Positions 7,958-47,952 of a stretch of 48,696 nucleotides of DNA are shown here, piece after piece. The stretch lies in the NCBI GenBank assembly GCA_008632985.1, contig QPGO01000098.1, positions 186,001-234,696 on the forward strand, in the 5' to 3' direction. The stretch comes from Psammoneis japonica. Taxonomy: Eukaryota. The notes under the pieces were generated by a model, which did not search any database, was not told the DNA's origin, and saw only the letters and a program-made list of their open reading frames with translations. A program made the translations under genes and the position numbers. The first letter of the stretch is position 1. Each line of letters begins with the position of its first letter.

Positions 7958-9284
7958 CTACCACCTCCGCGGCCTGCAAGTTGTGACGGCCCCTGCAGTG
8001 AAACCGGACTTGGACGACAAGCCCAGGAAAATATCGCCAGTGGTTTCGTTGTAGGCAAACTTTGCTTGCACTCCAAATGTCACTTCGAGATCTGCAAAGG
8101 ATGACGCCGCGGCCCTTGAAAAGGCATCGGCGACCGCGCCTGAAGATGCTATTGCGTGTGAGTGTGCATCCTTGCAAAGGTCACGCGAATCCCAGGAGCA
8201 GAGCTTGGGATGATTCCTACTGCAATACCAATCGTGCCACTCCATGCAGCTGTTTAGCCAAGCTTTACCAATCGCAACGGTGGTCACATTGGCATAAGCA
8301 TCTTTAATACTAGTACTTCTGGGTCGAGTGAAGCTTGATGCCCCTTGAATCACCACGGCTTTGACGCTCTTGATACTCCTGCCCTTGGCTTCGACGCCTA
8401 AAGGAGGATACCTGCTCTCAAGTGCCCTGGAAAAGCTGGAAGCTGTGGTAACAGCGTCAGCAGTGCCGTATGCATCCACTTCTTCACCATCAGAACAAAT
8501 AACCTTGCGGTGCGGATGTCTGCGACTCATTCTCTTGCAAATCTTCTTTGGATCCGTCGAAGCACCAGCTTCCCCTTCTAAATAGGCGGCAGCTTTCGCG
8601 GAAGATCGGCTGTATGCTACAGACAGCTGACACTGTTGCAGACGCTCTCTGAAGTCAACGCGAGGGATTGGCCCGATCCGTCCTCTTTGTCTGATGGAAA
8701 GCTCGACTTCCGCATCAAGAAGGGCGCTCATTCTTGATGCGGCCCGAGCCGTAGACCAACAGGTGCTTCCAGCTGCAGCAAAAGCCATTGACGCATTTTC
8801 CGAATTGTTTTTATACAAATCCGCAATCTCGAAATTCTCAGAGAGGTACGCATTGCAAAACTCCATAGCATTGAAGCACATGTCTTGCTGCCGCAGCCAA
8901 TACCAGGTGCGAAATTTTAGCGTGTAGGCGATGATGCCTCGCGGGCCGGGTACGGCGGTGACTCCTGGTGGCAATGGCAGTCGCGCGTTTCTAGGCCTAG
9001 TACGACGTAAAGAGCGGTGGTTGTTATCTTCCTCCTCGAGAACGAAAACGCCACTTTGCTCTTCTTCGACTCCAGTTGGGTTGTCAAGCCGCACCTGACA
9101 GATAAGCAAGAAGAAATAGTGAAGTCATGAAATGCCGATGATGAACATGCATCAAGATCTAAGAATGGATTCTAATTCCACTCCACAAAAAAGCAGCACG
9201 TACCGAAGCGTTACTGTCTTCCGAGCCCGCTGTTACGATGATGTCGCAAATTGCCAAAAGGAAAGAAAGGGTTCTGACTCGCAT
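7958..9284 (-). CDS. Secreted Ala/Ser/Cys-rich protein of unknown function, paralog A; join complement(7958..9094,9204..9284)
   Basis: An 81-nt signal-peptide exon (MRVRTLSFLLAICDIIVTAGSEDSNAS), a GTACGT..CAG intron and a long exon. Clearly homologous to 24622..25907 with the same intron position. Confidence 0.8.
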
Positions 9285-9991
9285 GGTTCTCTCTTTTGAA
9301 GGAAAACGTTTTGGTTGCTTGTCTCGCTGCAGTAGTATGGTGGATAGAATTTGCTCTTCATTTTTTGAGGGAAACGAGAGCGAGGACAAAGCGCTATTGC
9401 GCCACAAGCAAGCATTCGCGGTTATTCTCCAGGTTTTCTTGTTATATGATCCAAAACACTTAAGGAAATTGATAATGTCCATGGTCATCTGCCTATTTTT
9501 CAAATAATGCATGTGTATTATATGTTGTATGTACGGTACAGTATTTCTGTATTGTTGCGGTGGAAATGACTTAAGCAGGGCCGTTCATCATAATCATCTT
9601 GTATCAAGGTCATCGTCATTTCTATCTTCGGGTCATTGTGAACCACACCAGCATGCACGCCGAGTGGCGGGATGGGATGATGACTGAAGCAGCTGTGCGT
9701 TCGCGCCGCAAAACACTGCACGATGACGAAAGCCTTAACGACAACGCCGACGGGGTTTACTCCCCCGTCAAGCAGCGCCTCGCTACACCTTCCGAAATGG
9801 GCTCCCAACCCTCCATTGCACAATGGCCCATTTTCTTTGCGATGCATCCTTTGCGTTGTTTTGGTTTTCACCATTTTCCTCATCATCCCCAACCTCAGCA
9901 CAGCTTCGTTGACCCTCTCTTCCTCATCCTCTCCACCTTTAAGTGCCAACCCTTTGCTTTCCTTCCTTTCTTCAACTGACTTTGAACAATG

Positions 9992-10125
9992 ACACAGCCC
10001 CACACCACCCCTTCCTGTCACCTCCAACAGCCCCGCCTCCCGAATTTCTCCGCCCCGCCATCAACACAGCCCCGCACCACCCCTTCCTGACACCTCCAAC
10101 AGCCCCGCCTCCCGAATTTCTCCAT
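9992..10125 (+). repeat. 72-bp tandem duplication
   Basis: acacagcccc(a/g)caccaccccttcctg..cacctccaacagccccgcctcccgaatttctcc occurs at ~9992 and ~10064. Confidence 0.8.
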
Positions 10126-12339
10126 CCCGTCTCCACCTCAACCATGCCAATGCCATCAGCAATTGCACTGGTTGCCAACTGTGTTGCTCTGCTGGATTGA
10201 AAGCCAGCAGTTTTCCCAAAACACACTCTTTGACCAGGCACCTGCTAGCTCTCTCTGCTGTTTGTTGCTTCGGCATGGACGAGTCATTCCTGGACCCGGG
10301 GTCATTTGATGACCTTTCTGATTGCTCCTCCAAACACAACCCTTCTGATGACTCCTGTGAGAGTGACCCTTCTGATGTTGATCAATCCAACGATCACAAC
10401 TGGACCACCACCCGCGTGGTTTCCTTCCTTCTTTCCCCTCGGTTTGTCCCACGAATGACAATGCCACCGCATGCTTCAATGCTCCAACAACCTTTGACTC
10501 CCAAAGTTGGTGTCAACAAGACTTCCCAAATCTCATCTCTCATCATCCCCTGCATTGGTCTTACTCCGATTTGGACTCACCAGACCTGACTTGGCATGAC
10601 ACCATTCTCCCACCGATCACCTTCCGCCCAAGTCCTCCACCTGCTCCCCATCTTCCTTCATTTGCAATCCTTCCTCTGCCACCCCATTTTGCCCATTTTC
10701 TCTTTGATCCTTTGGCTGCTCAATCCCCAAGCTTCCATCCTTTTGTTGCCCTCCTTGAGTCTGCCACTTTCTCCACCAACTTGGCATTGCCTCCAACCCA
10801 CCCTTTTTTCCTTTCCTTGCGATCGCCTGCGCCGTGGCCCCCGCATTTTCACACCATCACCAGACCCTGCCCTCCTCCTTCACAAGTGCTTCTGCGATGA
10901 GACAGCCTGTGGTGAACCTCCCCCCTCTTTCATCTGCCGAGTTCCCACATCCCTTCTTCACTTTGTTGGCAACTTTCTTCTCCACATCGACAACTGCCTT
11001 GACAACTCTTTGACTGGCATCCGCACTCTCGGTCAACCCTTTTTTTCTCCATCTCCGAGCGCACTCCACGCAACTCTCCCACCACCTGTTTCTCCAAACC
11101 AATCCCCTCCAACACCACAGACACCCCAATCACCAATGAAAACAGCACCTTGAGTCTGAAGCCCCCAAATGCAGGAAAGCCAATTTCAGGCAACAACTGA
11201 ACTCATCATTCCAGCTAAAGCAAACAAATGTCAAAACATCAATGTGGAGAGAACAAGATGACCTCCAGAAATTCCAGGGCAGCCCAGCAACAGTCAAGAA
11301 AATGCAAGCTCCAGCCACCCACCTGACAACCCCTGTGCACCAAATCTGTGGCTGTGGATGCAAAAAAGAGAAACAAGTGACAACTTTTAAGTCTGTGCAT
11401 CATGGGCAGACTTGGACATTGTGTTTTGGCATGAGTGTGCAGGCCCTCCACTTCTTCATGCTGTCGTGTGTTGTTGCGTGGCTGTGCAACAAGCCAGTTG
11501 TGGTGTCATGAGACAAAGGCAGCCCAGAAAACCCAGCAACCTGGCAAAAACATCTTGTGCAAAATTTGCACTGAAAGAGTCTGTCAATCAGAGCATGGCT
11601 TCAATCAGAGCATGACTTGGGGGTTGTGGCATCATTTTTTGGCACGGAAGTTGTGCCAGCAAAAACTGCAAACATGCTGACAGACAGACTCTTTGGCCAG
11701 CTTTGCAGATTGAAAAAACAACAATGAGACAAGCAACACAATGCAGAAAAGCACTCTGGGGAGTGAGTGTGGCTCATCATGGACAAGTGCCAAATGAGCA
11801 AGCAAAGCCTCCTCTGGTGGATGCTTTCAAGGGACAATGTTGTCAAAAAAGCTGGTCTGTGTGGTTGTTGTGTCAACACGACCAGCCAATGTTTCAGCCA
11901 CAAGCGCAGCAGCTCTCTCTGGAACAAGGAGAAAATGAAAGTTTTTCTGCAACCCCCCAGTCAAGGCTGCAATCCCAATGATGACCTCACCAAGCTTGCA
12001 GTGAAAGATGGGGAGGGCATTTGTTGCCAAAAAGTTGCCCATGTGTGCAGGCTTGGATGTGGAAAAAAGGGCTCATTTGACCCATCTGGAAAGGGTGGGA
12101 GTCATGTCACAGAGGAAGCAGCGCACCTTTTGCCAGTCAGTCATCACATGAGTTTGACAAAAACAAGCATCATCTTTGACATGTTGCCAACAGAATTGCT
12201 CCACAGTTTCTGCAATGACCAGCTTGCATCACTTTGATTTGGGGCTGCAGCACCCACATCAAGCACCTGCCATCAAATGTTGTGAGGACATTTGACTGAG
12301 TTTGTGGCAAGGATTGTTGGCATTTGCAAGCAATCTCAT

Positions 12340-13185
12340 GGATGTTTGCTTTGTTGTTGGACTCAAGCAGCACTCAGGCCCTGGCTGCATGTGTGAAAAC
12401 TGCTGTGGATGCCAGTCAAAGAGTCATCAATTGTTGGCAATGCACAGCACAGATCTGAGTGTGCTGTGGTGGCCACCAAGTGCTGCACACATTTGCTGTT
12501 GAGCCCAAGTGGCGCACCCTTTGAGAACACAAAACATGGGCAAAATCTCATCAGATGAGTTGGCTTGTGTTTGTTCAGTCTGCAATCCCATGGTGCATGC
12601 AACACAACATGTTTTGTGTGGTTTTGGCAACCACTCTGCAGGCACACCTGCACACTTGTCACCCACAAAACAAAGTGTGCATGCACCACTTTGAATCTCT
12701 GTGTGACAAATCTCCCATGACTGGCTTTCAGATGAAAATGTTTGTTGTGTTTTGCAAACCAACCATGCTGGCTTTGTTGCTGGACTCTCAAGCAGCACAC
12801 AGGCCATGGCTGCATGTGCTGACACTCCTGCTGTGAATGTCAGACAAAGAGCTGTTGATTGTCAACCATGCACTGCACAAATCTGAAGGCTGTGGCCACC
12901 AAGCACTGCTGCAACACAAGATCTTTTCCAGCACCAGGTGACATGCTCAACCACACATTTGATTTTGAGCCCAAAAGTGACACACTCTTTGACACAACAC
13001 AGAACATGGGCAAAAACTCATCAGATGAGTCAGTGTGCAATCACATGGTGCATGCAACATGACATGTTTTGTGTGGTGTTGGCAACAACTCTGCAGACAC
13101 ACCTGCACACTTGTCACTCACAAACAAAGTGTGCACGCATCACTTTGAATCCCTGTGTGACAAATCTTCCATGGCTGGCTTTAAG
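12340..13185 (+). repeat. Diverged ~430-470-bp tandem duplication
   Basis: Shared blocks such as aacatgggcaaaa.ctcatcagatgagt (~12533/~13003) and catgttttgtgtgg..ggcaac.actctgcag.cacacctgcacacttgtcac (~12608/~13063). Confidence 0.8.
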
Positions 13186-14899
13186 CTGCCTGAAATTGTC
13201 TGTTGTGTTGTGCCTTTTCCTCCTCTGTGCAATGGAAAATGAAGAAAAATCACATGTCAAATGATGCTGGTGACACATGGATGTGGTTTCATTGGTTTGT
13301 CAAAATCTTCACATTTAAACAAAAGCTTGTTTTGGCATGTGTTGAAAGAACATGTGACAGCAAGCAACAAAATGAGTTGACTGTGTTGTTGCAAGAAAGC
13401 TGACAAATGAACTGCTCAAGGCAGGGTTGGCGCCAAAAGACAAAGCTGGCTTTTGTGTGGTGGATGGGCTTTCAACCCACCGCACAATGAAGGAGGACCA
13501 AGGAGAAGCATGGCAAAAATGGTGAACACCTGGAAAGCTGCTTTTCAGACAATGGTGAAGCATTGTGGCTGACTGCAAAACCAGCCCAACTTGGGCAGCT
13601 GGTGCAACCACATCATTGCACCCAACCAACCCCAGCCAGCAAATTGTGCCACAAAGAAACAAGGAATGACTGGCTTTTGAGCACACAGTGCACTTCTGTG
13701 CCACCCAGCACAATTTGTCAATGATGTTGCATTTGATGCCAATCAACACACAAGCACCACACCATCAAGAAAGCACAGCTGACTTTCCAAATTTTGAAAG
13801 CAACATTTGGTTGGGGTTCCCTGGCCTGTGCAACAACCATGCCGCATGCTCTGGCACATGCTTTGAGCAAGGACAACAACCAAGGAACAAGCAGTGCACA
13901 AAAGGTGAGGGTCACCCACCCAAGTAAAAAGGCATCAACCTCTGTGTTGTTTTGCATGCTGGCATCCAAAGAATGGCAGTTGCTTTTGAGTGCTTTCACA
14001 AGCAAAGGTTTGTGGCTGTTGTCAGAGGAGTGACTCCATGCCCATGCCACAGATTTTTTTCTTTTCAAATCTGCCAATGACTTGCATGTCTCTCTGTGTG
14101 ACATGTTGCCAGCCAATTTGTGGTGCCCTGCATTCCCAAAGAGAAATCTGATCTTGAACTTCAACAAAGGCTTCAGCAAAAAGCAAAAATTTGACCTGGG
14201 TGCAGGTGAAGAGTTTGCAACTTGTTGCAACCACGCCCAAAAGCTGCAACACCAGATGCCTGCCTTCTGTCACAAATTTGCAAAATGAAAAAGGAGCTGC
14301 AGCTGTGGCAGAGAAGCAGCCAGTCAATCCAATGAAGAAGACAGATCACCATTTTTTGCCCAAATGGGGTCCAGCAGCACTGCCAACGAGAAGGGCTGGA
14401 GAGCTGGCAAAGATTTGAGTGCTGTGTCTGTGACAACCCATGCCATTGAAGCATGTGAACAAAAAGGTGTTGCAATGACCTCAATCTCTTCCAAGCTGAA
14501 AGCAGCTCTCTCCAGCTTTTAGCACCATTTGAGCCTGGTGTCTGTTTGTCCTTGAGGAGGCTGCCAGACTCAATCTCTGGCAGATGATGCTGACCCTGAC
14601 ATGTCAATGCTGTTCTGGCAGAGCACAAAAAAGGCAACTCACACAAACACACAATGCTGGTGACACACCTGGCCCTTCCTTTGTGGCAACCTTGGACAGA
14701 GGACCCCTCCTGTTGCAGTGAAATCAGTGCTTTGCTCAGAGGCAGAGCCAGGTGCACGCCTGTGGTCAGACTGTGCTTCAAGAATTTTTTTAGCCACCAT
14801 TGCCTGCTGGTGCTTTTTGTGATCTTGCTGCACTTTTTCCTTGAAGAGCAAATGATGAGACTGGGTGGGACCTTGGCAAGGGAGCATTGAGGTGCAATC

Positions 14900-15620
14900 C
14901 AATGAGAGCACAAATGTGTCAAAATGATCTGCAAAGACCAACCAAGCATCCTGTCAGCACAAAATCACAAGCAGTGTTTTAAAAAAAAAACAAGACATGC
15001 CAAAAGGTTGTGCCTGCTTCTTGTGAAGTGCCTCCACAGCAGCTCTGAACAAACCAGCTGCTTGTGTTCAGATTGCTCACAAGTGAAACAAAAATGGCAG
15101 GACAAGTCACATGCCAGCCAGTCAGAACCTGCTTGCCTCCAATGTCAATGCCCTGGCTGTGTCACTGCTTGTGTCATGCTGTTCTTGTTGACTCCATTGC
15201 AGAAAAGATGTGTCAGGAATGGACACGCTTGAGCAGTGGTGGTGGCAGAGAGCATTGAGACCAACACCCCCCTGAGACAATGATTGAAAACAGTGCTTGC
15301 GATGCAAAGCTGTTGGGATGGCACAGCACAAACATTTTGACAGCCACTCATCTTGCATCCCAGAGCACTCTGTCTTTCACACAACCAAGACTCTGTCTGA
15401 GAAACTGTGCGACACTCACATTGTCTGCAACCATCCAACAAACTGCCATTCCTCCATGTGCATCTCTTGCAAATGCTTTGCTGAAGCCAAGAAAAAGGCC
15501 AAGACTCAACTCTTCCTTGCTTGATCCACTGAAAGCACTGAAAGTCTGGCTCACATGCAGAGCAAGTGGACAAGCCCCCTGGGCTGGGCAGCAGGTTGAC
15601 ACTGGATTTTCACACAAATC
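14900..15620 (-). pseudogene. Possible relic of a non-LTR retrotransposon reverse transcriptase
   Basis: FLGFSKAF (~15490, cf. LDFSKAFD) is followed ~70 codons later by SQGGV(L) (~15270, cf. QGxxLS). No intact YADD. Confidence 0.3.
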
Positions 15621-18269
15621 TCAACAATGAGCATGGTGGAAGAATGTGATCCACAGGGAAAGGAGCTGTTTCAGCTGTTGCTGTGCCAATGCAGGTGTGA
15701 AACCATGTGTTTTGCAGAAATGGCTGTCGATTTTGGGGCCAATGCCATTGCACCACTGGGTCGCTCTCAAGAAGTTTCTTGATGTGCGCCAGTCTAAATG
15801 GAGACCAGACTCTGTGACAAAAGACACCTCTCTCTGTTTCAAAAACAAAGGATCCCATTGCAGAATTTTGACTTTGCACTGGTTGGCAAAAGATTGCCAA
15901 GATCATTGAGGAGATGAAGCTGCCAAATGCAATGGCAAAACTCTGGGCCACCCAACATTCAGTGGGTTTGAGGATGATCCAATGGTGAGAAGGGCCCTCA
16001 GCTCTCCCTTGCAGCTCTCCTTTTGGGACATGACATGTGTTCACACAAGGAGTTGGCAGATGCAGTCAAAAAAGCAGGGGGTTTGCTTGCAAGGAACTTG
16101 CAGAAGACTGGGAAAGAGCTGCACGCTGCACAAAGCTCTTCAAGAAGACTTTTTGGGTGTGGAAGGAGCAGCCTTCAATTCCAGCAATGTGGCGCCATGC
16201 CTGACAAAGGGCTTTTGCACAAAAAATGATTGATGATGGGTGCCAAAAGTGCTCAAGTGAGTCTTCCATTTCTCACTTTACCACATCAAAGATGAGAGTC
16301 ATTGCAGGAACCAGAAATTAATTGTGGCATGTGAAGGGTCCTCAGGACATGCTCAGGACATGACAGTTGCAATTTTCAGGGGGCAGAGCATGCACAGATG
16401 CATGCTGTGTGCAACAGCAAGCTGTTTCTGAATTGTTGTGTTGACAACAAGGAGGAGCTGTCCAATGGAGCAGAGCACAGGCTGCACACCTGAACTGCTT
16501 CAGAGGCACCACATTTGGTGCTGGTGAAAGCAGTGGAGGAAAAGGAGCCAGCAACCTTGATGAACAGGAAATGCACAACAACAACATTGCAATGAAAGAC
16601 AACCCAGCCTGTGCTGGGGGAGGGGTGAGGGGGGCATCACACCTTGAAGCATTGTTGCTCCACAAGGATGCCAAGGCTGGTTTGTTTCTTGATTTTAAGG
16701 ATGAAGTCAAAGGGTCAGCACATCCTCTGTTGCCAACACCCACACTTTCATGCTTCGAAGCCTCAGCTTGTTTGATTAAAAACTGTCAATGTGGGCAAGC
16801 TGGTGGAGCTCATTGCAGATGAAGACACACTGCTTGCTTTTTCCACAACTGTCATTGATGCTCTGACATCTCTGGCTAAACTCAAAATGCAAAAGTCAGG
16901 GGAGAAGCTTTGGCTGCACAAGCACACTCTTCCACAAAGTGCAATGGTCATGGCTGAAAAAGCCAGAGTTCTCACATGGATGATTGACTGTGTGTGCAAG
17001 AAAGGCACTCAACATGCAACCGACGCTGGCACTCCCAACATTTTGCTTGTTGGTGGAGCCATGACTCTTGCTGCTCACAAGGGCATGAAGAATGTAGTCT
17101 GATTTTAAGCAACAAAATTCTTGCTTTGATGAAATCAATGAAGCAGCGCTGGGGAGCCACAAAATTCACAAGGCTGCTGAGCTGGTTGCAACATCATGTC
17201 ACTGTCAGACTGGGTGTGTGGGTGAGAGTCTGCTTTGAATTTGGGAGATGACTGTTTTGCGTCTGTGTGTGCTGATTTGGTCATCATCCAGCCCAGAGAA
17301 GCCAGCTTCCATTTCAAATTGGTGGAACAATGTCATCTTTTGTCATTGCAAGCCTTCACAGCAGTTGCCTCAAAAAGAGAGAAGACACCAGCAGTCAAAC
17401 AAATGGTGTTGGAGACCAGCTGGTGCAGATGGAAGTTGTCCAGAGATGTGACAGAGGATTGTCAGTGGTGTCATGCAGAAACAATGCCAGATCTTGTGCA
17501 GGAAAACCAATGGGATCAGCAAACAGTTGGTGATCAAATGACACCAAAAAGGATGACTTGTGTTCTTGCTGGAAAGGGACACAGCAACAGAGGCAGCACT
17601 TGCACCCCAAAGAGTGAAGGACTTGATTGAACAGCAGAGAAAAGAAGCAGCATTCTTAAAGACCAACTGGCAAGGACAGAAGCAGTCCAGAGATGGGACA
17701 TGCAGATTGTCAGCAGTTTCTGCTGAACCACACAGAATTTGCACTGGAACCTGTGCAGAAAATTTTGAGATGACAGAAGATCACAAGAAATGACAACCAG
17801 CATGCAAACCATGCCGGCAAGGCTTCGACACCCATCATTTTCCAGCCACCAAAAAATGTTTTGCATCATGCTGAAACAAGGTTGCACCATTTGCAACTGT
17901 GGACGAAAGGGGCTTGTTGGAACTGACAAGACACCATCTGAGAAGGGCAACATTAGCACGAGAAGTTGCATGGAAATCCACTCACAATGTGCTGTGGGTG
18001 TGCAGAGCTGACATTGAAAAATGGGTGCTCCAGCGTCCAAAACATTTGTGAGCAATGTTGCTCAATTGATGAAGGCTTCAGGGCAGGTTCTGAGAACTTG
18101 ACAAAAAAATGAAAGCACCCCTGAATCTTGCCCCAAGTCCCCCTTTTGGCACTGTCATTCCTGGCATGCCCAAAGGGATGGCGCCGCCATGTCACACTCA
18201 ACAACAGCCTTGTCTTGGTGATCAAAACAACATCTGTGTCATTTGGCAAAGACTGTTTGAAGGGTCTGC

Positions 18270-18480
18270 ACTCAGAAAAGTGGACAGCAACAGTTGACAC
18301 TGTGGATGGATGCTCTAGTCAGAACAAGCTTGTGCACGCGCAATCTCCATGAGCAAATGACCCCACAGTGGGTTGCAGCTCCCCAAGTGCCAGTGGGTGC
18401 AACACATGGCAGATGCACCTAAAAATGCCATGTCGCAGCATCTGTCAAGGCAAGGACAGAAATGGACAGCAGCACCTTGC
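18270..18480 (+). pseudogene. Possible relic of a DDE DNA transposase (DGCxxQ(N/Y)K ... HGKxxxD type)
   Basis: VDGCSSQNK at ~18302-18328, then a frame-broken QGK..EMDS some 40 codons later. The spacing is compatible with this motif pair. Confidence 0.3.
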
Positions 18481-20451
18481 TTTTGTGCCAGAGCTGTCAT
18501 CAAAAGAGGAGCTTGGTTGCTGCTGATGGGTTTAGTTGGGCATCAGCAGAAGTGCTGCCAGCTCTTGTTTGTGTCAAGGGTGGGTGCTTGCTGTCATGAC
18601 CAATCTTTTGAGTTCTTCAGCCAAACACCTGCATTCTCTTGCAACTGTGCAACCCATTCCCAAAAAGAAACAGAGAAAGTGCAAACAAAGCCACTTCAAT
18701 GTTGCTCAAAGGGGATAAAAAAATGCTCCAGAATTTTTCACAAAACTCCAAACCAGCCATGTCTGAAGGAACTTTCATCCAGCTCAAGCAACCAACAACA
18801 AAAATTGCACCAAATCCAACTGTTCAAGCATCATGATTGCATGGGCCCAGGAAGCACACACAGTGCCAAAAGAGCCCAGGCACTGTGATGAAGAACACCC
18901 AGTGGAAACAAAAAAAGGAAATCCAAAGTCAACAAAGTGGTGGGGTAAAAAGCACATGCCTGTCAAAGGATTTGAAGCACCAAAACCAAATGTGTCTCAG
19001 AAAAGCTTTTGCTCACTTCCAGAAACTGATTCTGAAAGACCATCATGAAATGCTCTGCCACGATGCAGTCAATGCAAGTGTTTCAAAATCTGTCAAACAG
19101 CAGCCTGCGCAGCTTTTGTCATTGAACAGCATCTCTTGTTCATGCACAAATTCTCATTTGGCCATGCAATGGCATGCCAAAAGGGCTGAAAGAGGGAGCA
19201 CATGGTGCAGATTGTAAGATGTTGCAAAAGGTGTCAAAATGCTGGTTGAAGAAGGGGATGGGGTGCTGTTGTGAGCCACTGACTGGTGCCCGGTGCTGCG
19301 CGCGTCATGTGATGAGAGGATGCAAAGTTCCAGAAGAAGTGGCCGCTGACCAGCAATGTGCAACACATCTGGCACACACATGGGAGACCTGAACACTGGG
19401 GATGTGAATCAATCACTGCACAGTGTGTGTTGTGACCTTTGCTGGACCAAAGCTGGAGTTGCAGCACAGCTCTGCTCTGCAGCTGGATGTTTTTGGCCTT
19501 CATCTCATCACTGGCCATTTTGGCATTGACCAGCAGACTCAATTTACAAAGATGCTTGAGCCACAAAATTGTTTTGCTGAGAGTGACACACCTTTGCTGG
19601 AGGAGAGGGCACATCTGTGAAGCACATTTTGAGCACATTTGACAGAGGACATGCTGCTGCCGCTGTTTTGGAAGCAAAAAGCATGAGCAGGAGAGCAGCT
19701 GTGTCGCCAACCTGACAGAGGAGTTGACAAGCTTTCAGGGGTCAAAGTGCATCATTCAGCATGTTGTGTTGCTGCAACAAGATCAGGCAATGAGTGGGCT
19801 GTGAAGAAACAGCGCGCAAGCTGCCCTGGTCGGTTTCTCCGTCACGGCACACGAGAAACCAGCAGCGGAGCGTTGACTCAGCTGCCAACATCTGGGAGGC
19901 ACGGACTTTCCGAGTGAACTTCATGTGTGATGCATTTCAGCAAAGGCTTGCAGTGTGTCATGTCAAAATGGCACACAGATCTGTGCCACAGTTGAGTGGC
20001 TTATGTGCCATTGACAAACAATGTTTGAGTGGTTGCCTGCGCAGTGGCTGCAATGGGATGGTTAGCAAGCGATGTAAAAATCTCTGCAGAAATGAGAATT
20101 TGCATCGCCGGCCGGGTGCAAAAATTTTTCTGAAGACAGTTTGTTATTGTAAGCTAAAATAATCGCATTTCATCGGTCTTTTGCAAAAAATTCGGCCTCA
20201 GCTTCAACCAGAAATTTCAGCAGCGCATCGATGCAAAAAAAAATTTGGAGTCGCATCGATCCTATCTCCCTGCGCCGCAGTCGTTGACTGCTGATAACAA
20301 AGCTCCAGAACCTCATCATATGGCTCATACATCAAACTCCACTTCCACTTCTGTTGCTTCTGAAGTTATGCCCAATTCATTGAATACCTGGGAGAATTTG
20401 GCGCAAGATCCAGCCGACGACTGGATGCATCGACGCTGATTCAGACATGCT

Positions 20452-24621: not shown

Positions 24622-25907
24622 CTACCACCTCCTGGGCTTACAAGTAGTGACGGCTCCTGCAGAGAAACCAGACTTGGTCGACAAGCCCAGGACAATCCTG
24701 CCAGAGATTGGGTCGCGGGCAAATCTTGCTTGCACTCCAAATGTCACTTCGAGGTCTGCCCATGAAGACGCCGCAGCCCTTGAAATGGCCATGGCGACCT
24801 CGCCGGAAGATGCTTTTGCGTGTGAGTGTGCATCCTTGCAAAGGTCACCCGAATTCCAGGAGCAAAACTTGGGATGATTCCTACGGCAATACCAACTGTG
24901 CCACTCCATGCAGCTACTAACCCAATCTTTATCAATCGCGATGGTGGTCACATTGGCGTAAGCATCGGCAATAGTTTCGGCTCGACTGAAGTTTGACGCC
25001 CCTTCAAGCACTACAGCTTTGACGCTGTCGACGCTCAAGCCCCTGGACTCGACATCTAAATAACGATACCATGTGCTATTAAGTGCCCTGGTAAAACTTG
25101 AAGCGTTGGAAGCAGCGTATGCAGTGCCGTATGCATCCACTTCACCGTCGGCACAGATAACCCTGTGAAGCGGATGTCTGGGACTGAATGTTCTGCACAT
25201 CTCCTTTGGATCCGTCGAAGCACCAGCTGTCCCTTTTATATAGGGAGGAAAAAAATCGACGAAAGATCGGCTGTATGCCACAGACAGCTGACACTGTCGT
25301 AGACGCCCTCTGAACTGGACTTGTTGGCTTCGTCCGATCTGTCGTTGTTTGACGGAAAGCTTGACTTCCGCATCAAGTAGGGCGTTCACTCTTGAAGCGG
25401 CCCGGGCCATAGACCAACAGGTGCCCCGAGCTGCGGCAAAAGACATGGCCGCATTTCCCGAATTGTTTTTATACAAATCCGCAATCTCAAGATTCTCGGA
25501 GAGGTAGGTATCGCAAAGCTCCATAACGTCCGCAACATTGAAGCACATATCTGGTGGGCGCAGCCAATACCAGATGCGAAGTTTTAGCGTGAAGGTGGTG
25601 ATACCTCGACTGTTGGTCACGGCGGTGACACCTGGTGGCAACGGCGGTCGCTTGGTAGGCCGACGACGTAACGAGCGATGGCTGTTTTCGTCCTCCTCGA
25701 TAATGAGAACGCCACTTTGTTCTTCGTCAAGCTGCACCTGAGTGAAATCATGAAACACCGATGATGAATACGCAACGATATTAAACAGGGGATTCTAATT
25801 CTAATCCACAAAAAAGCAACACGTACCGAGGTGTTGCTGTCTTCCGAGCCCGCTGTGACGATGTTGCCGCAAATTGCCAAAAGGAAAGCAAGGGTTACGG
25901 CACGCAT
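24622..25907 (-). CDS. Secreted Ala/Ser/Cys-rich protein of unknown function, paralog B; join complement(24622..25737,25827..25907)
   Basis: Signal-peptide exon MRAVTLAFLLAICGNIVTAGSEDSNTS, same intron position as paralog A, colinear protein ending in KPRRW. Confidence 0.8.
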
Positions 25908-28658: not shown

Positions 28659-28768
28659 GGCTGTGAATAGTATTGATTCAGAGGACGACGAACGACAATG
28701 ATCGATGCAAGTATCAGGCCAACAAAAGCGTTCTCGAGTTTGAAGTGGGGTGTTGGTACAGGGTTGCG

Positions 28769-28851
28769 CAGAAAACGTATCCGCGGTATGGTAAGTGCGG
28801 TCATAACGGCGGTATGGAAATCTGATTGGACAAACGACGTCAGCTAAGAAC
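28769..28851 (+). repeat. Left terminal inverted repeat of the MULE
   Basis: cagaaaacgtatccgcggtatgg...cgtcagctaagaac is the exact reverse complement of 32967..33049. Confidence 0.97.
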
Positions 28852-28989
28852 CGTGTGATAATCGATAAGTAACGATGACATCATCCTTACCTCACCATAC
28901 GTGTACATTTTCATCGGTGGATATATTATTATGAATGTTCCCAACTTACTCACAGCAAACTGCAGCGCTGCAGCGCACAATGACACCGG

Positions 28990-33049: not shown

Positions 33050-33740
33050 AGGGTTGCGGGTTGTGTTTTGTGTTGGTGTTATGGGTGTTGGTGGCAACTC
33101 CTCCGGGTTCTTCGCAGTAATGATTTCTGTACATTTCTACGTCAGGGTGATTTCTGAATAATTTCGAATAATTTTTGTGAAAAACAACTCACAACGTGAT
33201 GGGACGATGGAGATCCTGATGAAAGCAAAAAATGTCCGGAGAGTTATTATTACAGACATCACTGCGAGTTTTGTAATGATTCGGTATGACTAGTGTGTAC
33301 ATCTTTCAATGGATTTCTCTACCAGTATGCATGCAGATGGAGCTCGTCGGACGATGGTGCGGTGTTTGATGTCTCGGAGCTAGACTGCTTCGCGATGATG
33401 ACATAGTTTCTTATTAGCGATCCCCAAACACACATTGACGTTTGAGAAAAAGATTATTGTCAAGGATAACTGTCAGCAACACACATGCTTCGTCAATTAT
33501 AAGAGCTGAAGGTTCAAGAAAATGTCAATATACATGTGCAATGCATGCATACGTTGCGAACCGTTGGTATCATGCAAAATCTGAATCGCAGACGAACCGC
33601 CACAATTTGGGCTCTCTAGGAGCTCACACAAAAAAGGCGGCAAGAGCTGCAGTCAAACTCTACAATAGTCTTGGTGATACGAAACCGTGACTTCTCCCGC
33701 CGTATTGCCTTCGCCGCAGAATCGGCAAGCCTTGGGAGCC

Positions 33741-35570
33741 ATGCATCTGAATACTGTGAGCAGGACCTTGTTTGATGGCAACAAGAACCGTAGCTTGCTT
33801 GGTGAGAAGCAGAAGCGTTCCCCTCATACATCTACTCCGCGTCCAAACAAGCGTGTTTGCTTCCAGCTTGATCCACGGGTGTGCTCGAGTAAAAGTACCA
33901 CGCCGATGGACATTTCTGCTGTTGCGACCGCCTTTTCTCGAATCGTGAAACAGTCCGACGTGCCCAGCTTGCTTGGTGAGAAGCAGAAATTTTCCACTCA
34001 TACATCTACTCCACGTCCAAACAAGCTTGTCCACTTCCAGCGTGATCCACGGGTGAGCTCAACTTTGAGTAAAAGTACCACGCCAATGGACATTCCTGCT
34101 GCGACCGCCTTTTCTCGAATCACGAAACTGTCCGACGAACCCAGCTTGCTTGGTGAGAAGCAGAAACGTCCTACTCATACATCTACTCCACGTCCAAACA
34201 AGCTTGTCAACTTCCAGCTTGATCCATGGGTGAGCTCAACTTCGAGTAAAAGTACCACGCCGATGGAGATTTCTTCTGTTGCGACCGCCTTTTCTCGAAT
34301 CGTGAAACAGTCCGACGTGACCAGCTTGTTTGGTGAGAAGCAGAAATGTTCCACTCATACATCTACTCCACGTCCAAACAAGCTTGTTAACTTTCAGCTT
34401 GATCCACGGGTGAGCTCAACTTCGAGTAAAAGTACCACGCCAATGGACATTCCTGCTGCGACCGCCTTTTCTCGAATCACGAAACTGTCCGACGTGCCCA
34501 GCTTGCTTGGTGAGAAGCAGAAACGCCCTACTCATACATCTACTCCACGTCCAAACAAGCTTGTCAACTTCCAGCTTGATCCACGGGATAGCTCAACTTC
34601 GAGTAAAAGTACCACGCCGATGGAGATTTCTTCTGTTGCGACCGCAGCTCATCGGAGCGTTGAACCTATCGCCGTTCCTTCGTCTCGATCTGTGAATCAG
34701 TCCGATGAACCAGGGCCCATGGAGATGGAACCCACGACGCCTTCTAGTGACATGTCCGTCACTCCCACCAGCACTGCGAGCAGAGATCTCGCATGCTACA
34801 ATGCCGTTGAAAATCAACGCGAGGTTGCAATCTTTCACAACAACCTTGGCCATGTCTACTACAGCCAAGGCAAATGGGACAAGGCGCTTGAGGCCTTTAC
34901 CAGCGCTCTCGTCATTCAGCAAGCACTTGCGGGGGATCATAATGTCGAGAATACGTCCAGTTACATGCACATTGCATCCGTTCTCTGCAAGCAAAACAAG
35001 CACCACCAAGCCTTGAAGAAATGTCGCGAGGCTCTTGCAATCCGGCGAGTCCACTTTGGTGATGGCCACGCCAAGACGGCTTCGGCGCATCACCTCTTGG
35101 GTATGTTTCTGAGTCATGAGGGTCGCAACTACGAGGAGGCCTTGGTAAGGCTCGAAACGGCTCTGGACATTCGTCAAGCCGTCTTGTGTCGCAATCATCC
35201 CAAAACGGCCTCGACCCATCACGAGATTGCAGTGGTGCATCGTTGGCAAGGCGACCATGAGCAAGCCTTGGAGCACTTTCGAATGGCATGTGCCATTCGA
35301 CAAGCCACTTTAGGAGAAAATCATGTTAAAGTGGCAGTCTTGCACTACGAAATTGGCTTGGTCCTTCGAGAGCAGCGCAATCACAAGGCAGCTTTGGAGC
35401 AGTTTTGCAAGGCGCTGGCCATTCGTAAAGCAATGTGGGGCACGGACCATCTCAAGATTGCTACCCTTTACAATCTTATTGGCGAGGCCCACCGTGAGCT
35501 GGGAAACTGCAACCAGGCCATGGAGGCATATGGCATGGCGCTAGCGATTAGCCGAGGCAGCAGTGCCTAG
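33741..35570 (+). CDS. Protein with ~5 N-terminal 58-60-aa Ser/Thr/Pro repeats and C-terminal TPR repeats (kinesin-light-chain/TPR_12-like)
   Basis: ORF 33687..35570, first ATG at 33741. TPR motifs such as HNNLGHVYYSQGKWDKALEAF and HPKTASTHHEIAVVH recur at ~42-aa spacing. Confidence 0.85.
   Translation: MHLNTVSRTLFDGNKNRSLLGEKQKRSPHTSTPRPNKRVCFQLDPRVCSSKSTTPMDISAVATAFSRIVKQSDVPSLLGEKQKFSTHTSTPRPNKLVHFQRDPRVSSTLSKSTTPMDIPAATAFSRITKLSDEPSLLGEKQKRPTHTSTPRPNKLVNFQLDPWVSSTSSKSTTPMEISSVATAFSRIVKQSDVTSLFGEKQKCSTHTSTPRPNKLVNFQLDPRVSSTSSKSTTPMDIPAATAFSRITKLSDVPSLLGEKQKRPTHTSTPRPNKLVNFQLDPRDSSTSSKSTTPMEISSVATAAHRSVEPIAVPSSRSVNQSDEPGPMEMEPTTPSSDMSVTPTSTASRDLACYNAVENQREVAIFHNNLGHVYYSQGKWDKALEAFTSALVIQQALAGDHNVENTSSYMHIASVLCKQNKHHQALKKCREALAIRRVHFGDGHAKTASAHHLLGMFLSHEGRNYEEALVRLETALDIRQAVLCRNHPKTASTHHEIAVVHRWQGDHEQALEHFRMACAIRQATLGENHVKVAVLHYEIGLVLREQRNHKAALEQFCKALAIRKAMWGTDHLKIATLYNLIGEAHRELGNCNQAMEAYGMALAISRGSSA
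33790..34650 (+). repeat. Coding tandem repeat, 174-180-bp units, alternating A/B types
   Basis: agcttg(c/t)ttggtgagaagcag restarts at ~33792, 33966, 34143, 34323 and 34500. Confidence 0.9.
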
Positions 35571-37124
35571 CCATGCAACAGCGCAAGTCGTCGTACCGGA
35601 TAACTGGTTATTCTTATCTAATCCACATTTCTTATATGCAAGTTTGGGCTAGTAGTGTCACTTTTTCTCTTGAGTGATGTGCGACCAATCTTGGACCTTT
35701 CTGGATCGACCGATCGTGAAGACGGGTGCGATTGATTCTTCGACAAATGCTACAAACGCGTTCATCGTGTTGTTCAATCAAGCAGCAGTGAGAGAAGATG
35801 CCGCTTATGCGCGTAACATTGTATTGCCGCGACCCGTGTCGCGTGAAAAGTAAAAATGGACAAGTAACTACCAATTTATTAAGACACGCCTCATCTTTGA
35901 ACTACGTCTTCTCTATAGTAGCATCATGTTTGTTGATGATACACTCTACGCAAAACGCACTGGTACGAAGTCCCAATTCCGCGACATGCGCCAAGTCGAC
36001 TAACCATTGCTTCCCAAGCAACGGACAGTTTGGGCAGGTCCAAGTCCTGGGTGAGGAGTCCCCCCTTGTCGATGCGCCCCAAAGACAACATCCATCATTT
36101 CAGGGTGCGGACTAAAGAATCGGTCCTTTTGGGTGAGACTTCCTCCTTGCTGCCAAGCACCAGCATCTCCCAGGTCGTTCCTGGAACAAGTGTGTTGCAT
36201 TTCTTCAAGCAAAACAGAGAAATGACTGCAAGTGTGAACCAAGGCTGTGCTGAGAAAACGATGAAAACAATCCCTGCACTGGGTCAAACAATGCTCTTCT
36301 GTGTCCAATGAAGCTGTCTTGCCCCCCTCGACTCAAGAGTGCTGCAACCACTGATCCAGCATTGATTCTCACAAATGAGGACCGCCTCCTCATGTTTCTG
36401 CATGCTGCACCAGACACAGCCACGTGGGGCATCCAGGGGAGGGAAGCCAACCAAAATCTCCTGCAACAACATTCCCACCAAGCATGCCACGCAACAACAA
36501 GCCCATCTGGTTGCCATCTTCAAACTCTTCAGGAAGCAAACTGCACTCCATGCACACATGTGAACCAAACAACCAGATTTGACACCAGAGCTGTGCTGTG
36601 ATGACCCCTCTGCATGGCAACAATGCACTCATGTGTGCAGAACAGGATCACCCTTGCTGACACCTGTGACCCAAGCCCAGCTTGAGCAACTCATGTGTCA
36701 GCAACAGCCAGTCTTCTGCAGCCCAAAAAAACTTGATCAAGCACCTGTGAATGCACGCTCTCAGGGTCAGGGTTGTTGGGGTCGGGGTTGGGATTTCGGG
36801 CATTGTTTGGTGAGAGTGTGTGTGTGTAAGAAGTTGTGTGGGTCACTCGCAAATGAGAAAGAGAGCTGTGCAGTGGCACAAGGTTCACAGTGGCGCACTT
36901 GTTTGGAAAGAGAGATTGTGTGATGACACATGATGGAGGTCAGGAATGCTGAGCTTGTCTTTGGAGTCAAAGAATGGCGCAACAATGAAAAGACAAACAA
37001 GCTCCATTGTGTCAACAAACTGCAAATTCATGAGGTTGTGGTCAGCTTTGAAGATTGTGCATCTGCGAAACTGTCCGAAACAACTGCTCGAATGTGAAAG
37101 TGTGCATGTTGTTTGTCCTCTGTT

Positions 37125-37262
37125 TTGAGCACATTTGCCACAAATGTGCTGAGCCAACTGGGTGCCCCTGGGCACAATGGTGACATGCTTGGCATGGATT
37201 GTGCAAAGGTTGGCATTTTCAAATGAGCCAACAAGACATGCTGCTCCAGAAGCTCCTTGTGC
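37125..37262 (-). pseudogene. Histone H3 C-terminal relic
   Basis: [38 protein letters not shown] aligns with H3 [37 protein letters not shown]. Confidence 0.85.
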
Positions 37263-37617
37263 AGGGGCTCTGACCGCTTTTCCCACAATGTGTGGCAGGC
37301 ATGGTGCAACACAATGGGTGCATCATTCTTTCCCATGAGCAATCAGCCAAAACACTTGATGCTGATCCGCTGTGCACCGACACTTTGCGCACACTTTTTT
37401 CTTGTCATTTTCTTGTGCTGGCACTTTGTGCAAACTTCTTTTTTCTCAGTTTCGTCTTGAACAAATGCAAAAGTTTTGACACCGCCATGTCCCCTGTCAA
37501 ACAACCTTGGTGCAAGAAGTCAGTCCTCTGTTTGACTCCAAACAACAATGCATCTTTTTGTTGATTTCACCATCTTGTTAAAGAGCTTGCCAAAGGAGTC
37601 TTTCAAAAGAGGGTGTT

Positions 37618-37680
37618 GAACCTGCACTGTCAAACATTCCAAGGTGCCGCCAACGCAACCTGCGGCAGTCTTGTCTTGGC
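37618..37680 (-). pseudogene. Possible histone H2A/H2A.Z-like relic
   Basis: TAAGCVGGTLECLTVQV versus H2A.Z TAAVYSAAILEYLTAEV. The match is short. Confidence 0.35.
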
Positions 37681-38250
37681 CCAGCAGCTAACCAGCCATG
37701 TGTGAAGACGAAAAAAATTTGAATGCTTGTAATGTGGGTCGTGGGCTTCATTTTTACTTAGAGGCGATGGTCTCTCTTTTCCGTTGCCAACGCGCCAGCC
37801 CAGATCAAATTTTCTAAAGACGAAAACAATGAGTTGTGCGCGAGAGGTGAGGCTGAGACAACGAAATCACGAAGCCATTTCGCGTTCGTCACAACAACTT
37901 TGCTCTGGTGCATCGGCCATCTGTCTGTCGAGGAGGCAAATTTGCATTAAAACAACAAGACAATGAAAGAAGAGACAGGGCAAGGAATCATGTCAATGAA
38001 GGACGTGCGCATTGCTGAGGCAAAGTAGTGCGGCATTAACACAGAACTCTCGCTGGCTTTGGGTTTCATTCGCAAGGTCTGTCAATTCCCTGAAACACGA
38101 TGCGGATGGCGAGACGCACCCAGAGAACTCCTTTCCAGTGACGCTTTTAGCGGCGCAGTCCTGCCGCATGTCCAAATGGATGAGAAAATGGATCGCCTCA
38201 GTCCAGCGGCATGGTGTGGAGCATGGAGGCATTCATCATCTGTGTGTGGT

Positions 38251-41200
38251 CTACACAGTGCGTTTTATGTATTGTCGTGAGATAGGATCGACGCGGAAGG
38301 GCGTCCTGAGTTTCGAACACTCTCCCCATGGAGTCGCTTCGATTTCAAACTTGAAGGTCACGGCAGGGCCTTCACCGGCATCCGAAAAGACTTCCCCATG
38401 CCACATTTGCTTCTCGTGATCACTGTTTGCATCTGATTTGGCCTCAAGGCCTACAACGATCTTTACATTCCTCTCTTTTGCAAGGATAAATCGCTCTGTA
38501 CGAAGGTGACCCCATAAAACTCGGAAGGCGCCATCTGCGGTGCCACCAGCAGCGCGTTTAACGCCGTGGGAGATGGCCTCTATGATGCATCGAACCAAAT
38601 GTGAGACTGGAAAAGCAGGCACGTCGTCAAAATGACCTGCGCACATCTCCTCTGGAACAGACTCCAGCATCAGAACTGTTTTGGAAGCATTGAAGCTCTT
38701 TCTTCCACCGAGAGGCTCGTTGCATTCACAGTCAGACCCGACGAGCATTGCTGGAGGCAACGTCACGAGAGCAGGCTGCTCAGAGTTCGGAACAGCAACT
38801 CCGCATCTCGTCATTCCCATGACAGAATGAAAATGGCCGGCCGGAATCACATTGTGCTCGGTGCGCAGCGAAGCAATCAGCTCTCCCGTTGCTGTGTTGA
38901 ATGCTTCCGAGACTGCCACCCCGCGATTTTTCGGCAAGTCAAGAGACTCTTTCCGGCCAACTGGGCGGCATGAGGTCACCGGAACGCCCTCCAACACCGG
39001 AGAAAGAAGTGTTGACTCCAAAACGGGGTAGCAAGATTGCTTGTCCTGGAGATTTTTGTCCAGACTCAATGCATGCGAGCCGACAATCGCCATGTGGCGA
39101 GCAAGCTCAGCAAGAGGAGCACAGCTTGTCGTACTCTCTGCTCCATCGATCGTTTCGGGATACGCAGTAGCCTCGACGGAGTCCTCGTCTATTTGAACTG
39201 CATCTTTAAGATTGTTGTAAGGCTCACGAACAAGGACGCGATCTTGGAATGGAAGGATGTTGTTGTCGCCGTGGCCGACGGCTTCCTTGGGCGGGCTCTG
39301 CAATGTTTTGAAGTCTTCCGAAGAACCATTCTCAAGCATTTCCTCTAGAAGTTGTGAAGCCAGAGAACGAATGCTTGGAGCAGAAATTGGGGTCATTGCA
39401 CTGAGTCTTTGTCCCGTGAGATCCTCAATTTTCGTCGAAAGTTGCACGGCTACCATAGAATCAACGCCAAGGTCGCGAAGCGATTTTTGATCATCCATTT
39501 TGGAAGAATCCATTCGAAGAACGAAGGCAGCGGCCTCTGTGATCATCGAGCTCACCCGTCGGACAGCATTCTTAGGGTCAGCCAACAATTCCTCTCGAAA
39601 CTTCTCGGTTTTACTCTTTGCTGACGCCTTGGCGCTAGAATGCCGTGCCTCAGCCTCCTGAATCAGGCCCCGCATGTGAGGGAATTCAGCACCCTTCCAG
39701 CTGGAATCCCATTTCAAAAAGTCTGCCTTTGCAACTAGACACAAGGGCTTGTGTTCATCACGCTCCTTGACAGAAGAAACTCAAGTGCTTGTCGGACCAT
39801 TTTCATCGACGTCGGTGGGATTCCCAAAGAGGAAAGATGCTGCTTCACTGCTTCATTCCGTGCCACGTGCCCAATGTCAAGTGATCCCAGTGCCATGGCC
39901 AAAGCCGGAAGTCCTTCATTGCTGCGCCTGGAAGCAAGGCCTTCCAAGAATGCATTGGCAGCAGCGCACATGGTTTGACGACCATTGCCAAACATGCTCG
40001 AAACAGAAGAAACTAAGACAAAGTGATCAAGTGTGGGAATGTTGCGAGAAGCTGCGTCAAGGCACATTGCGCCTGTGGTCTTTGCTTCCAGGCTCTCTTC
40101 GATGTCATGAGCTGTCAACATTGTGACACCCAAATCATTGTGCGAGACTGCGGCATGGAAAACACCAGCCACAGGTGGGATCGTCTCAGTTCCGTCAATT
40201 TCTTGGAAAAGGCGCTCTACAGCACGCATGTCCGACACATTTACAGCATGAACCGATGCAATCCCTTCGTTGGTTGGCATGTGAAGTCGCTTTTGATCAG
40301 CCTCGTTCTTGCATGTCCCAGACCGGCTCACTAGCACAAGATGTCCGGCTCCTAGAGAAGCAAGAACCTGTGCCAGCTGAAGTCCGAAACCACTGAGTCC
40401 GCCCGTAATGACATGGGATCGATCCTGACGAATGTTGGCTGGAGAGGCAGTGACATCCATGGGAAAGTGCCCGCTTCTCCAATCAATGACAGCTTTGCCA
40501 ACACATTTGCTGGAAGAAAGACACTGGAAAGCTTCCTGTGCCTCTTGAGGTTGGAAGACGCGCGTCGGAAGTGGCGCGAGTTTTCCTTCCTCCAAGAGTT
40601 GCATCACGGCAGAAAAGTGTTTTTGTACGACGGAGTGGTCATCGTTCTTCGACTGTTCTTCGATTAATACATCCAGGTCAATGGCGTGGTGTGACATAGA
40701 TCGGCAGAATGGAGTCATCGAGATGCGATTACCTGAAGCCATGTCGCCTTTTCCGATGTCAAGGTAGCGCCCGCCTGCAGCCATTGCTCGAAGCCCGACA
40801 TCGAGACTCTCTCCTGCTTGCGCAGACAACAAAGCCTGGACACCCCTTCCGTTTGTCACACGAAGCACTTCCTCGCCCCAATTCAATGAGCGCGAGTCAA
40901 AAACATGTTCTACGCCCAGTTGTTCGCGGAGGTAATCTCTTTTTTCTTGGGTGCCAGCGGTGGCGATAATCTCAGCACCAAGCAACCTTGCTACCTGTAT
41001 GGCAGACAGACCAACACCCCCAGCTGCAGAATGAATCAGAACTGTCTCCCCCGATTGTACGTTGCCGGCAACCACAAGAGCATAATATGCTGTCAAATAC
41101 ACGAGCCCGCAGCTAGCAACAGGAGAAGAAACATTGTTCGGTACCTTGATACACATCCCCTCTTCCTCCACTATTAGAGACCCCAGCTGCGATCTAGTGG

Positions 41201-46679: not shown

Positions 46680-46767
46680 GTCTCGTCAGTTCTCCCACAG
46701 CTCTCTAGTTGCAACAACTGGAGCAGCCGGGATTTCCAACGTGGTGGACTGGGATGGCTTTGCCAGT

Positions 46768-46862: not shown

Positions 46863-47319
46863 CAGGGCCAGAGGGCGAGAGAGGTGGGAGCGTTAAAAAC
46901 TGTCTGAGACGGCCTGTTGCTCTTGGTTTGCTCTTTGGAAGAATGTGAGAAGAGCAAGTGTTTTTCCAAGAGAAAACGGCAGTTGCTCTTTTTGCCTGCA
47001 CGTGCACGCTCAAATTTAAAAACTGCGGCCACAAATGACCCAACGGCCAAAGTGGGGTCATTGCCTCATTGAGCTGCACGAGGTTGGCAGCTCAGCTGTC
47101 AATTTCTTCTGGAGGGCAAGTGGGCTGTGTTCTCCAACCCGCCAACACCCAAAACACCTGTGCTAGAGTCAACTTGCATGGGCATGCACACGGCACTCTG
47201 TGTTTCAGATTTTGCCTCACTTTCTTGAGCTTCTGCACCAAATGAGCCACTTGTTCCCACACAGAAAGCTCGCAACAGCACACAGCTGGCTCTGTCCATC
47301 AGACAAAAGAACAAGCCTG

Positions 47320-47740
47320 GTGGGTTGGTGACAACCTTGTGGCAAGAATGTCCACGACTCAATGTTTTGCAAATTTCCTTTTTTGGACCCAACAAAGCCA
47401 CAGCTGTGCCCATCAAACAGGGCAACAAGACAGCTCACCCTGTTGCAGATGCACTCTGAGCTGGGCTTGCTGGCTTTGTCCAGCTTGCCATTGTTTGATG
47501 GAAAGCTCAACTTCCACATTGAGATGGGCACTCGTTCTTAAAGTTGTCCAACTGCAGAGACCAACAGAAGTGCGCTGCCCCTCCTCCCAGCAGAGCAGCT
47601 CCAGCAGCAAAAGCAACAGCCCCACATTTTGCAAGCTCTTTTTTTTCTGTGCAAATCTGCCATCTCAAAATTCTCAGAGATGCGGGTGTCACAAAACCTG
47701 ATGGTTTTGAAGCACATGTCTTGTTGCTGCAGCCAGAGAT
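47320..47740 (-). pseudogene. Degenerate third copy of the secreted-protein family (paralogs A/B)
   Basis: Colinear similarity to ~8500-8900 and ~25150-25570, e.g. tgatggaaagctcaacttccacat vs tgatggaaagctcgacttccgcat, and ttgaagcacatgtcttg. The translation shows WLQQQDMCF..ENFEMADLH. Confidence 0.85.
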
Positions 47741-47952
47741 GAGTGTGCAACAAGATGAGATGGTGGGTTCCGGCTCTGTTCCACAAAAAAGCAAAGCACA
47801 CCAAAGCTTTTCAACCTTGGTCTGCATGAATCCAATTGGTCAACTTGCACTGCACACACCAGTGTTGGCCAGGATTGGGCTGGTGGTGGTGGGGATGGAT
47901 GAAAGTGCAAAATGTGCACATGTGCATGGAAACCCCCCTGTGCAGACAGAGC

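Follow-up and report, generated by a model that had tools for sequence, protein, structure and literature searches.

5-Methylcytosine deaminates to T, and this reaction underlies CpG decay. In diatoms, transposable elements rank among the main targets of CG methylation (PMC9998398, excerpts). In Neurospora and other ascomycetes, repeat-induced point mutation (RIP; PMC2621366 and PMC7882544, excerpts) changes CpA to TpA, with an A+T-rich outcome. Hypermutation from A:T to G:C that is specific to TpA has a single prior description, in a 2026 preprint on an unrelated alga. According to its accessible sections, 230 of the 231 mutations that arose de novo in two integrated viral regions of Bigelowiella natans mutation-accumulation lines were A>G or T>C, all of them on TpA (Mettrop et al., bioRxiv 10.64898/2026.01.13.699255), and the authors propose a DNA adenine deaminase. 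No description of TA erasure in diatoms was found in the literature searched, where the footprint was described only in the B. natans preprint.

We analysed a window of 48,696 nucleotides from the diatom Psammoneis japonica (contig QPGO01000098.1, positions 186,001 to 234,696), which contains a relic of a histone H3 gene. The genes in the window are long and intron-poor, and include a DDT/WSD protein gene (476-4375, minus strand), a GT2 enzyme gene (27942-28880, minus strand), a TPR protein gene (33678-35570, plus strand) and a gene for a highly reducing polyketide synthase (PKS; 38251-45999, minus strand). Within the TPR protein gene, the N-terminal half includes a coding tandem repeat of 177 bp (33792-34645, plus strand; 4.8 copies, 88% matches). 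Among the best 120 homologues of the DPM1 encoded in the window, those named to an organism all come from diatoms (Amphora, Nitzschia, Thalassiosira and Craspedostauros), with 74-78% identity.

Three zones of the window are nearly free of TA and poor in CG. The relic is located in the zone at 36002..37578, a non-genic tract of 1.6 kb with sharp edges that is flanked by the 3' ends of a convergent gene pair and contains 2 TA (1.3/kb) and 26 CG (16.5/kb). The largest zone, at 9941..20001, contains 27 TA (2.7/kb) and 89 CG (8.8/kb) in 10,061 bp, and the third, which extends from 46424 to the window end at 48696 and includes a gap of 88 N, contains 6 TA (2.6/kb) and 46 CG (20.2/kb) in 2,273 bp. 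Outside the zones there are 36.6 TA and 57.0 CG per kb. The observed/expected ratios of TG and CA are 1.92 and 1.71 in the zones, compared to 1.18 and 1.24 outside. The two depletions do not have the same limits. At the zone edges 9941-10625, 19661-20001 and 46424-46684, the TA-free state continues for several hundred bases beyond the CG-poor state, and the segment 9941-10625 retains 20 CG but only 2 TA. Since the edges of the two depletions differ, the process that removed TA is separable from CpG decay.

A Pfam search of 118 open reading frames from the zones gave one meaningful match, the relic of a host-type H3, which is also the only Pfam-recognisable content of 36002..37578. Another relic is a decayed member of a host gene family, and the remainder is too decayed to classify. 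No viral or transposon domains were found by Pfam among the 118 frames, and those from the largest zone gave no convincing match. Six weak matches, with E-values of 0.004-0.044, were taken as chance. A search for terminal or inverted repeats flanking 36002-37578 identified only short matches at chance level.

The earlier note had read positions 37125..37262 as an H3 relic, which is supported by phmmer, tblastn and a shuffle-tested nucleotide alignment. The block that we scored covers 37125..37241 and, translated on the minus strand (37241-37125), aligns without gaps to 38 residues and the stop of H3, corresponding to codons 99-136 (Met = 1) and a former stop codon that is now CAA. With the relic as query, phmmer against PDB retrieved 172 H3-type sequences at E<=1, of which the top one was H3mm18 (E 1.9e-11), while H3.3 was matched at 3.9e-09. 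An intact H3 matched the relic by tblastn with an E-value of 3.7e-10 and 60.5% identity over 38 residues. The local alignment score of the relic at the nucleotide level was 139, while 100 shuffled sequences scored 24.9 on average and 35.5 at most. The translation gave 1366 matches at E<=0.001 against 1.84 billion representative proteins, and the 13 matched sequences that were inspected were all H3 or H3-like models. A separate homologue search among longer proteins gave 0 of 39 candidates at E<=0.001, and the relic and H3 have no 5-residue word in common.

The relic probably continues upstream at 37242..37277 (minus strand), corresponding to about codons 86-98 of H3. Alignments to three H3 loci (L059, L045 and L017) extend to 37272-37277 but are broken into 3-6 blocks, with gaps or frameshifts, and this part was left unscored. 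Safe scoring was thus limited to the 39 ungapped codons, and the 21 bases at 37242-37262 can be aligned only with gaps. In total, the part of H3 that can be detected spans about codons 86-136. A search upstream of the relic did not recover the N-terminal two thirds, as the best score there was 32.5, while the null had a mean of 33.7 and reached 45.5 at most. This score belongs to an ATG-led stretch at 37408-37368 (minus strand), 284 bases from the former stop, which resembles the first 48 bases of the H3 coding sequence and is collinear with the relic, but the score is below the shuffle mean. If the resemblance were real, the relic would represent a whole H3 gene minus about 127 deleted bases. 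When 505 open reading frames from 80 H3 loci were searched by tblastn for a neighbouring relic of H4 or another histone, 197 of 201 matches fell on the H3 relic (36900-37499), and none elsewhere was meaningful.

The scored block contains 16 codon changes, all of which are single transitions: five at TA, seven at CG and four at neither. The TA-type changes are Y100C (TAT>TGT), L104S (TTA>TCA), T108A (T|ACC>T|GCC), M121V (T|ATG>T|GTG) and the stop codon (TAA>CAA), where the bar separates the final base of the preceding codon. The CG-type changes are A112T, R117H, R129Q, R130H, R132C, E134K and R135C. The others are D107N, K123R, D124G and I125T, three of which are A:T>G:C. Both strands were affected, with three TA>TG, two TA>CA, two CG>TG and five CG>CA changes. 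The changes were assigned by a blind classifier, which took the nearest codon of the H3 residue for each changed codon and read the context from that codon and the neighbouring base of the relic. The scoring covers amino-acid changes and the stop codon, and the ancestral codons were inferred from the protein.

The references came from 80 metagenomic H3 loci, which gave 72 full-length intronless coding sequences, 71 of them with 136 codons and a stop. All 71 have the canonical residue at 15 of the 16 changed positions, and 67 have it at the sixteenth, confirming the assumption of the earlier note that H3 is invariant enough for its ancestral state to be inferred. The direction of change follows from this invariance. 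Tyrosine and stop codons necessarily contain TA, and both were lost in the relic, so TA is ancestral. All five arginines were changed to histidine, glutamine or cysteine, which is possible only from CGN codons, so CG is ancestral as well, and TG and CA are the products. Some of the inferred ancestral contexts are uncommon. The L104S change requires a TTA ancestor, a rare codon present in only 1 of the 71 H3 genes and accounting for 6% of the leucine codons in the genes of the window. The T108A and M121V changes depend on a preceding codon that ends in T, as it does in the relic but in only 16 and 10 of the 71 genes, respectively.

As a null model, context-free random transitions were placed on the 71 real H3 blocks up to a total of 16 altered residues, and the same classifier was applied in 3000 simulations. 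The number of changes explained by TA or CG was 3.45 on average and at most 9, while 12 of 16 were explained in the relic. The probability of five or more TA-type changes was 0.004 and that of seven or more CG-type changes was 0.002. Among the nine relic changes that are not at CG, five are at TA, while the mean number of TA-type changes in the null was 1.36. The claim that TA and CG erasure explains most of the amino-acid changes is thus upheld, as is the TA to TG/CA polarity that the earlier note had drawn from H3. The classifier also arrived at the same seven CG-type changes and the same four unexplained ones, and at the TA-type changes of Y, L, M and the stop codon, but the earlier list had overlooked T108A. 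The four changes that are at neither TA nor CG may reflect either a leaky context rule or a contribution of ordinary decay.

The dinucleotide counts of the block agree with this direction. It contains 0 TA, 0 CG, 15 TG and 18 CA, and the erasure is thus complete at every inferable TA and CG site in the 117 scored bases. A one-for-one conversion predicts that TG+CA is raised while TA+CG+TG+CA is unchanged. Consistently, TG+CA is 33 in the relic, outside the range of 13-23 in the 71 intact H3 blocks, and TA+CG+TG+CA is also 33, within their range of 25-34. The metagenomic coding sequences were rejected as nucleotide ancestors because noise at silent sites swamps the signal; the closest has 33 differences in 117 bases, including 16 other transitions and 8 transversions. 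New here is the proof of polarity that comes from protein invariance alone. H3 serves as an internal standard that works without an outgroup or a repeat consensus and without assumptions about the history of transposons, and TA and CG are seen directly as the starting states.

A second comparison was possible within the window. A decayed copy of a gene family is located at about 47250..47800 (minus strand) in the third erased zone, and two intact paralogues without a Pfam family lie outside the zones: F1 at 7958..9124 (minus strand, 388 open codons) and F2 at 24622..25794 (minus strand, 390 open codons). F1 and F2 have 66% protein identity and 78% nucleotide identity. In a three-way alignment, the zone copy was scored at columns where F1 and F2 agree. 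It kept none of the eight TA that the two have in common (three became CA and three TG) and none of the 13 CG (six became TG and four CA), while other dinucleotides were kept in proportions from 3/8 to 14/17. On the zone copy, 19 of the 79 differences are changes of the TA and CG types, compared to 3 of 57 on the two intact lineages. Since the zone copy could be an outgroup to F1 and F2, this test does not by itself fix the direction, but it agrees with the H3 result.

Taken together, it is highly probable that a C-terminal fragment of a canonical H3 gene, dead in a silent intergenic tract of a diatom genome, was afterwards rewritten along with the tract by transitions specific to TA and to CG. 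In the proposed sequence of events, the fragment would have ceased to be a gene, and two context-specific transition processes would then have acted on the 1.6 kb tract. One, CG to TG/CA, would be the deamination of 5-methylcytosine in CG-methylated silent DNA. The other, TA to TG/CA, would be an A:T to G:C change restricted to TpA. The TA process may be enzymatic, with adenine deamination in TpA on either strand as its most likely form, which we regard as plausible although somewhat short of an even chance.

The best surviving alternative, which we nevertheless consider improbable, is that the thymine of TpA is enzymatically modified, for example to 5-hydroxymethyluracil (5hmU) by an oxidase of the TET/JBP type, and that misreading or faulty repair then turns it into C, so that T>C arises on either strand. 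An A>G change on one strand is indistinguishable from T>C on the other, and the three TA>TG and two TA>CA changes of the relic fit both chemistries. In dinoflagellates, 5hmU occurs preferentially in TpA. However, 5hmU pairs mainly with A, which counts against such misreading. Furthermore, the only study of the footprint proposes adenine deamination, without proof in its accessible sections (bioRxiv 10.64898/2026.01.13.699255).

Editing at the RNA level is very unlikely. An H3 transcript could have been hyperedited from A to I and the edited copy then retroposed, and the relic, which retains just the 3' part of the gene, would resemble a 5'-truncated retrocopy. Enzymes of the ADAR type also prefer a U before the edited A, according to the accessible part of the B. 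natans preprint (bioRxiv 10.64898/2026.01.13.699255). However, both strands are affected inside the relic, and the unrelated DNA that flanks it is erased as well, over a sharply bounded 1.6 kb, as are two other zones, which excludes RNA editing before retroposition. TG and CA are also balanced over the tract; along the zones, the strand bias between TG and CA ranges from -0.29 to +0.12 per 500 bp, without any notable trend. A plain reading of the bases just past the former stop did not reveal a poly(A) run.

Nor is the pattern at all likely to be an artefact of assembly or base calling at modified bases. Modified motifs do cause systematic errors in long reads. However, from a public run (X1) we built contigs that span 36593-37136 and 37115-37976 and show, over 36593-37976, 0 other letters and 2 gaps at a word depth of about 35. 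Two further runs, X2 and X3, yielded nothing over this stretch. This reproduction of the tract argues against an artefact, although X1 is probably the source sample of the assembly and is not independent of it. The changes are, moreover, codon-consistent single transitions within a recognisable gene.

We give equally little credit to neutral decay combined with CpG decay, in which the loss of TA would be a by-product of biased gene conversion or another general pressure towards A:T>G:C. Three of the four unexplained relic changes are A:T>G:C, as such a pressure would predict. However, G+C is 0.486 in the zones and 0.488 outside. In the paralogue test, the other A:T>G:C changes (16) are about as many as the other G:C>A:T changes (17), while all eight TA were lost. 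Among the dinucleotides composed only of A and T, the observed/expected ratio in the zones is 0.04 for TA, compared to 1.27 for AA, 1.24 for TT and 0.76 for AT.

Hardly more credible is a live, divergent H3 variant shaped by selection. Its frame is uninterrupted over 145 codons (36885-37322), but this is to be expected in DNA in which TAA and TAG are impossible. In addition, the five arginines and the tyrosine of the block are all replaced at positions that are invariant in 71 of 71 H3 genes, and the relic is outside the functional H3 family, as it has lost its start codon, its stop codon and the N-terminal two thirds of the histone fold, and its Pfam Histone (PF00125) scores of 25.2 and 25.8 bits narrowly miss the gathering score of 26.4.

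Returning to the reading of a dead H3 fragment rewritten in silent DNA, the X1 contigs also bear on its timing. A second X1 contig of similar depth, which may represent a paralogue or recent duplicate rather than the other haplotype, differs from the window at 79 listed positions, of which 59 are transitions. Among 40 of these 79 differences, at least four dinucleotides are CA in the window and TG in the second contig (36277/8, 36470/1, 36504/5 and 36583/4), at least two are CA in the window and TA in the second contig (35861 and 36210), and at least three, just left of the tract edge, are TA in the window and TG in the second contig (35870, 35948 and 35965). This is exactly the pattern that would arise if a single ancestral TA or CG had been resolved independently in two lineages. 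These differences suggest that the erasure continued after the two copies had separated.

The TA that survive in the zones, 35 in 13,911 bp, are not randomly distributed. As many as 13 of the 35 are in the context TTAA, compared to 57 of 1277 TA outside the zones (Fisher P 5e-9). Only one of the 35 is in the context ATAN/NTAT, which accounts for 46.5% of the TA outside and for 42.7% as expected from TG/CA reversions (P 1e-7). These contexts suggest a preference for a T following the target A, and poor action on TAA.

Depletion of TA also extends beyond the non-genic tract. At 37579..40634, TA is partially depleted while CG is normal, and this segment reaches into the 3' part of the PKS gene; the 3000 bp at 37501-40500 contain 41 TA and 163 CG. 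The 3' part of the gene (38251-40634, minus strand) encodes 0.8 and 0.0 tyrosines per 100 codons, compared to 2.0-2.3 in the remaining gene. In the ketoreductase motif ...TMCAAAN... there is a cysteine codon, TGC, at 39966..39968 (minus strand), at a position where solved ketoreductases have a tyrosine (human-type FAS, ...SNYGFAN...; EryAI KR1, ...GGYAPGN...). This tyrosine is presumably catalytic. TA erasure thus seems to be spreading into the PKS gene.

These observations would be accommodated by a chromatin-directed editor in diatoms that deaminates adenine in TpA on both strands, a reading that is possible but, in its full form, rather doubtful. Such an editor would have an extended sequence preference, in which TA followed by T appears to be nearly always erased and TTAA appears to be the most refractory context. 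It would act together with CG methylation but over a wider range, and may spread from silent DNA into neighbouring live genes, here a PKS with a cysteine in place of the ketoreductase tyrosine. Given that the only other case is in a rhizarian alga, it could also be ancient in the SAR supergroup. If the process is enzymatic, genetically tractable diatoms would offer a practical system in which to find a natural DNA adenine editor.

The CG>TG/CA changes, which make up 7 of 16 changes in the relic and 10 of 13 CG losses in the paralogue test, are those of CpG decay by deamination of 5-methylcytosine. However, CpG decay cannot explain the loss of TA, the CG-poor core takes up less sequence than the TA-free tract, and the 3' region of the PKS gene has lost TA but not CG. 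RIP is also regional and sharp-edged, dinucleotide-specific and confined to transitions, and it kills gene copies and mobile DNA. Its chemistry and outcome are nevertheless the opposite of those observed here, where TpA is removed and G+C is unchanged. Nor does its duplication trigger appear to operate in the window, as tandem arrays keep their TA and F1 and F2 are untouched despite their nucleotide identity. Two arrays of a 188-bp repeat, at 20450-22152 (9.2 copies, 82% matches) and 28991-29937 (5.0 copies, 95% matches), have 59.8 and 58.9 TA per kb, respectively. At about 59 TA per kb, these arrays show that repeated DNA on its own is not a sufficient trigger of the erasure. The TA process may target silent chromatin rather than repeated sequence as such. 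The H3 relic and the other data from the window set the TA process apart from CpG decay and argue against a duplication sensor like that of RIP.

The greatest likeness is to Bigelowiella natans. The region-confined process in that alga has led to long-term depletion of TpA and enrichment of CpA and TpG in clustered windows, according to the accessible sections of the preprint (bioRxiv 10.64898/2026.01.13.699255). The diatom locus has in common with it the TpA-specific A:T>G:C change that gives TpG and CpA, and the regional restriction next to genes with normal TA. There are also differences, as far as those sections of the same preprint allow a comparison. The TA observed/expected ratio of 0.04 in the diatom zones indicates near-complete erasure, while the B. 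natans NCLDV region has a Rho of 0.45. CG is strongly depleted in the diatom zones, while the term CpG has 0 occurrences in the main text of the preprint. De novo events were recorded in B. natans, while the diatom process is seen through its footprint in the sequence, with the CA-versus-TG differences between contigs as an indirect hint of activity. The targets in B. natans are integrated viral regions, while those recognised in the diatom are host-gene relics in non-genic DNA. The H3 relic shows that the erasure is not confined to viral or mobile DNA. Finally, B. natans is a chlorarachniophyte, whereas the host of the H3 relic is a diatom and belongs to the Stramenopiles.
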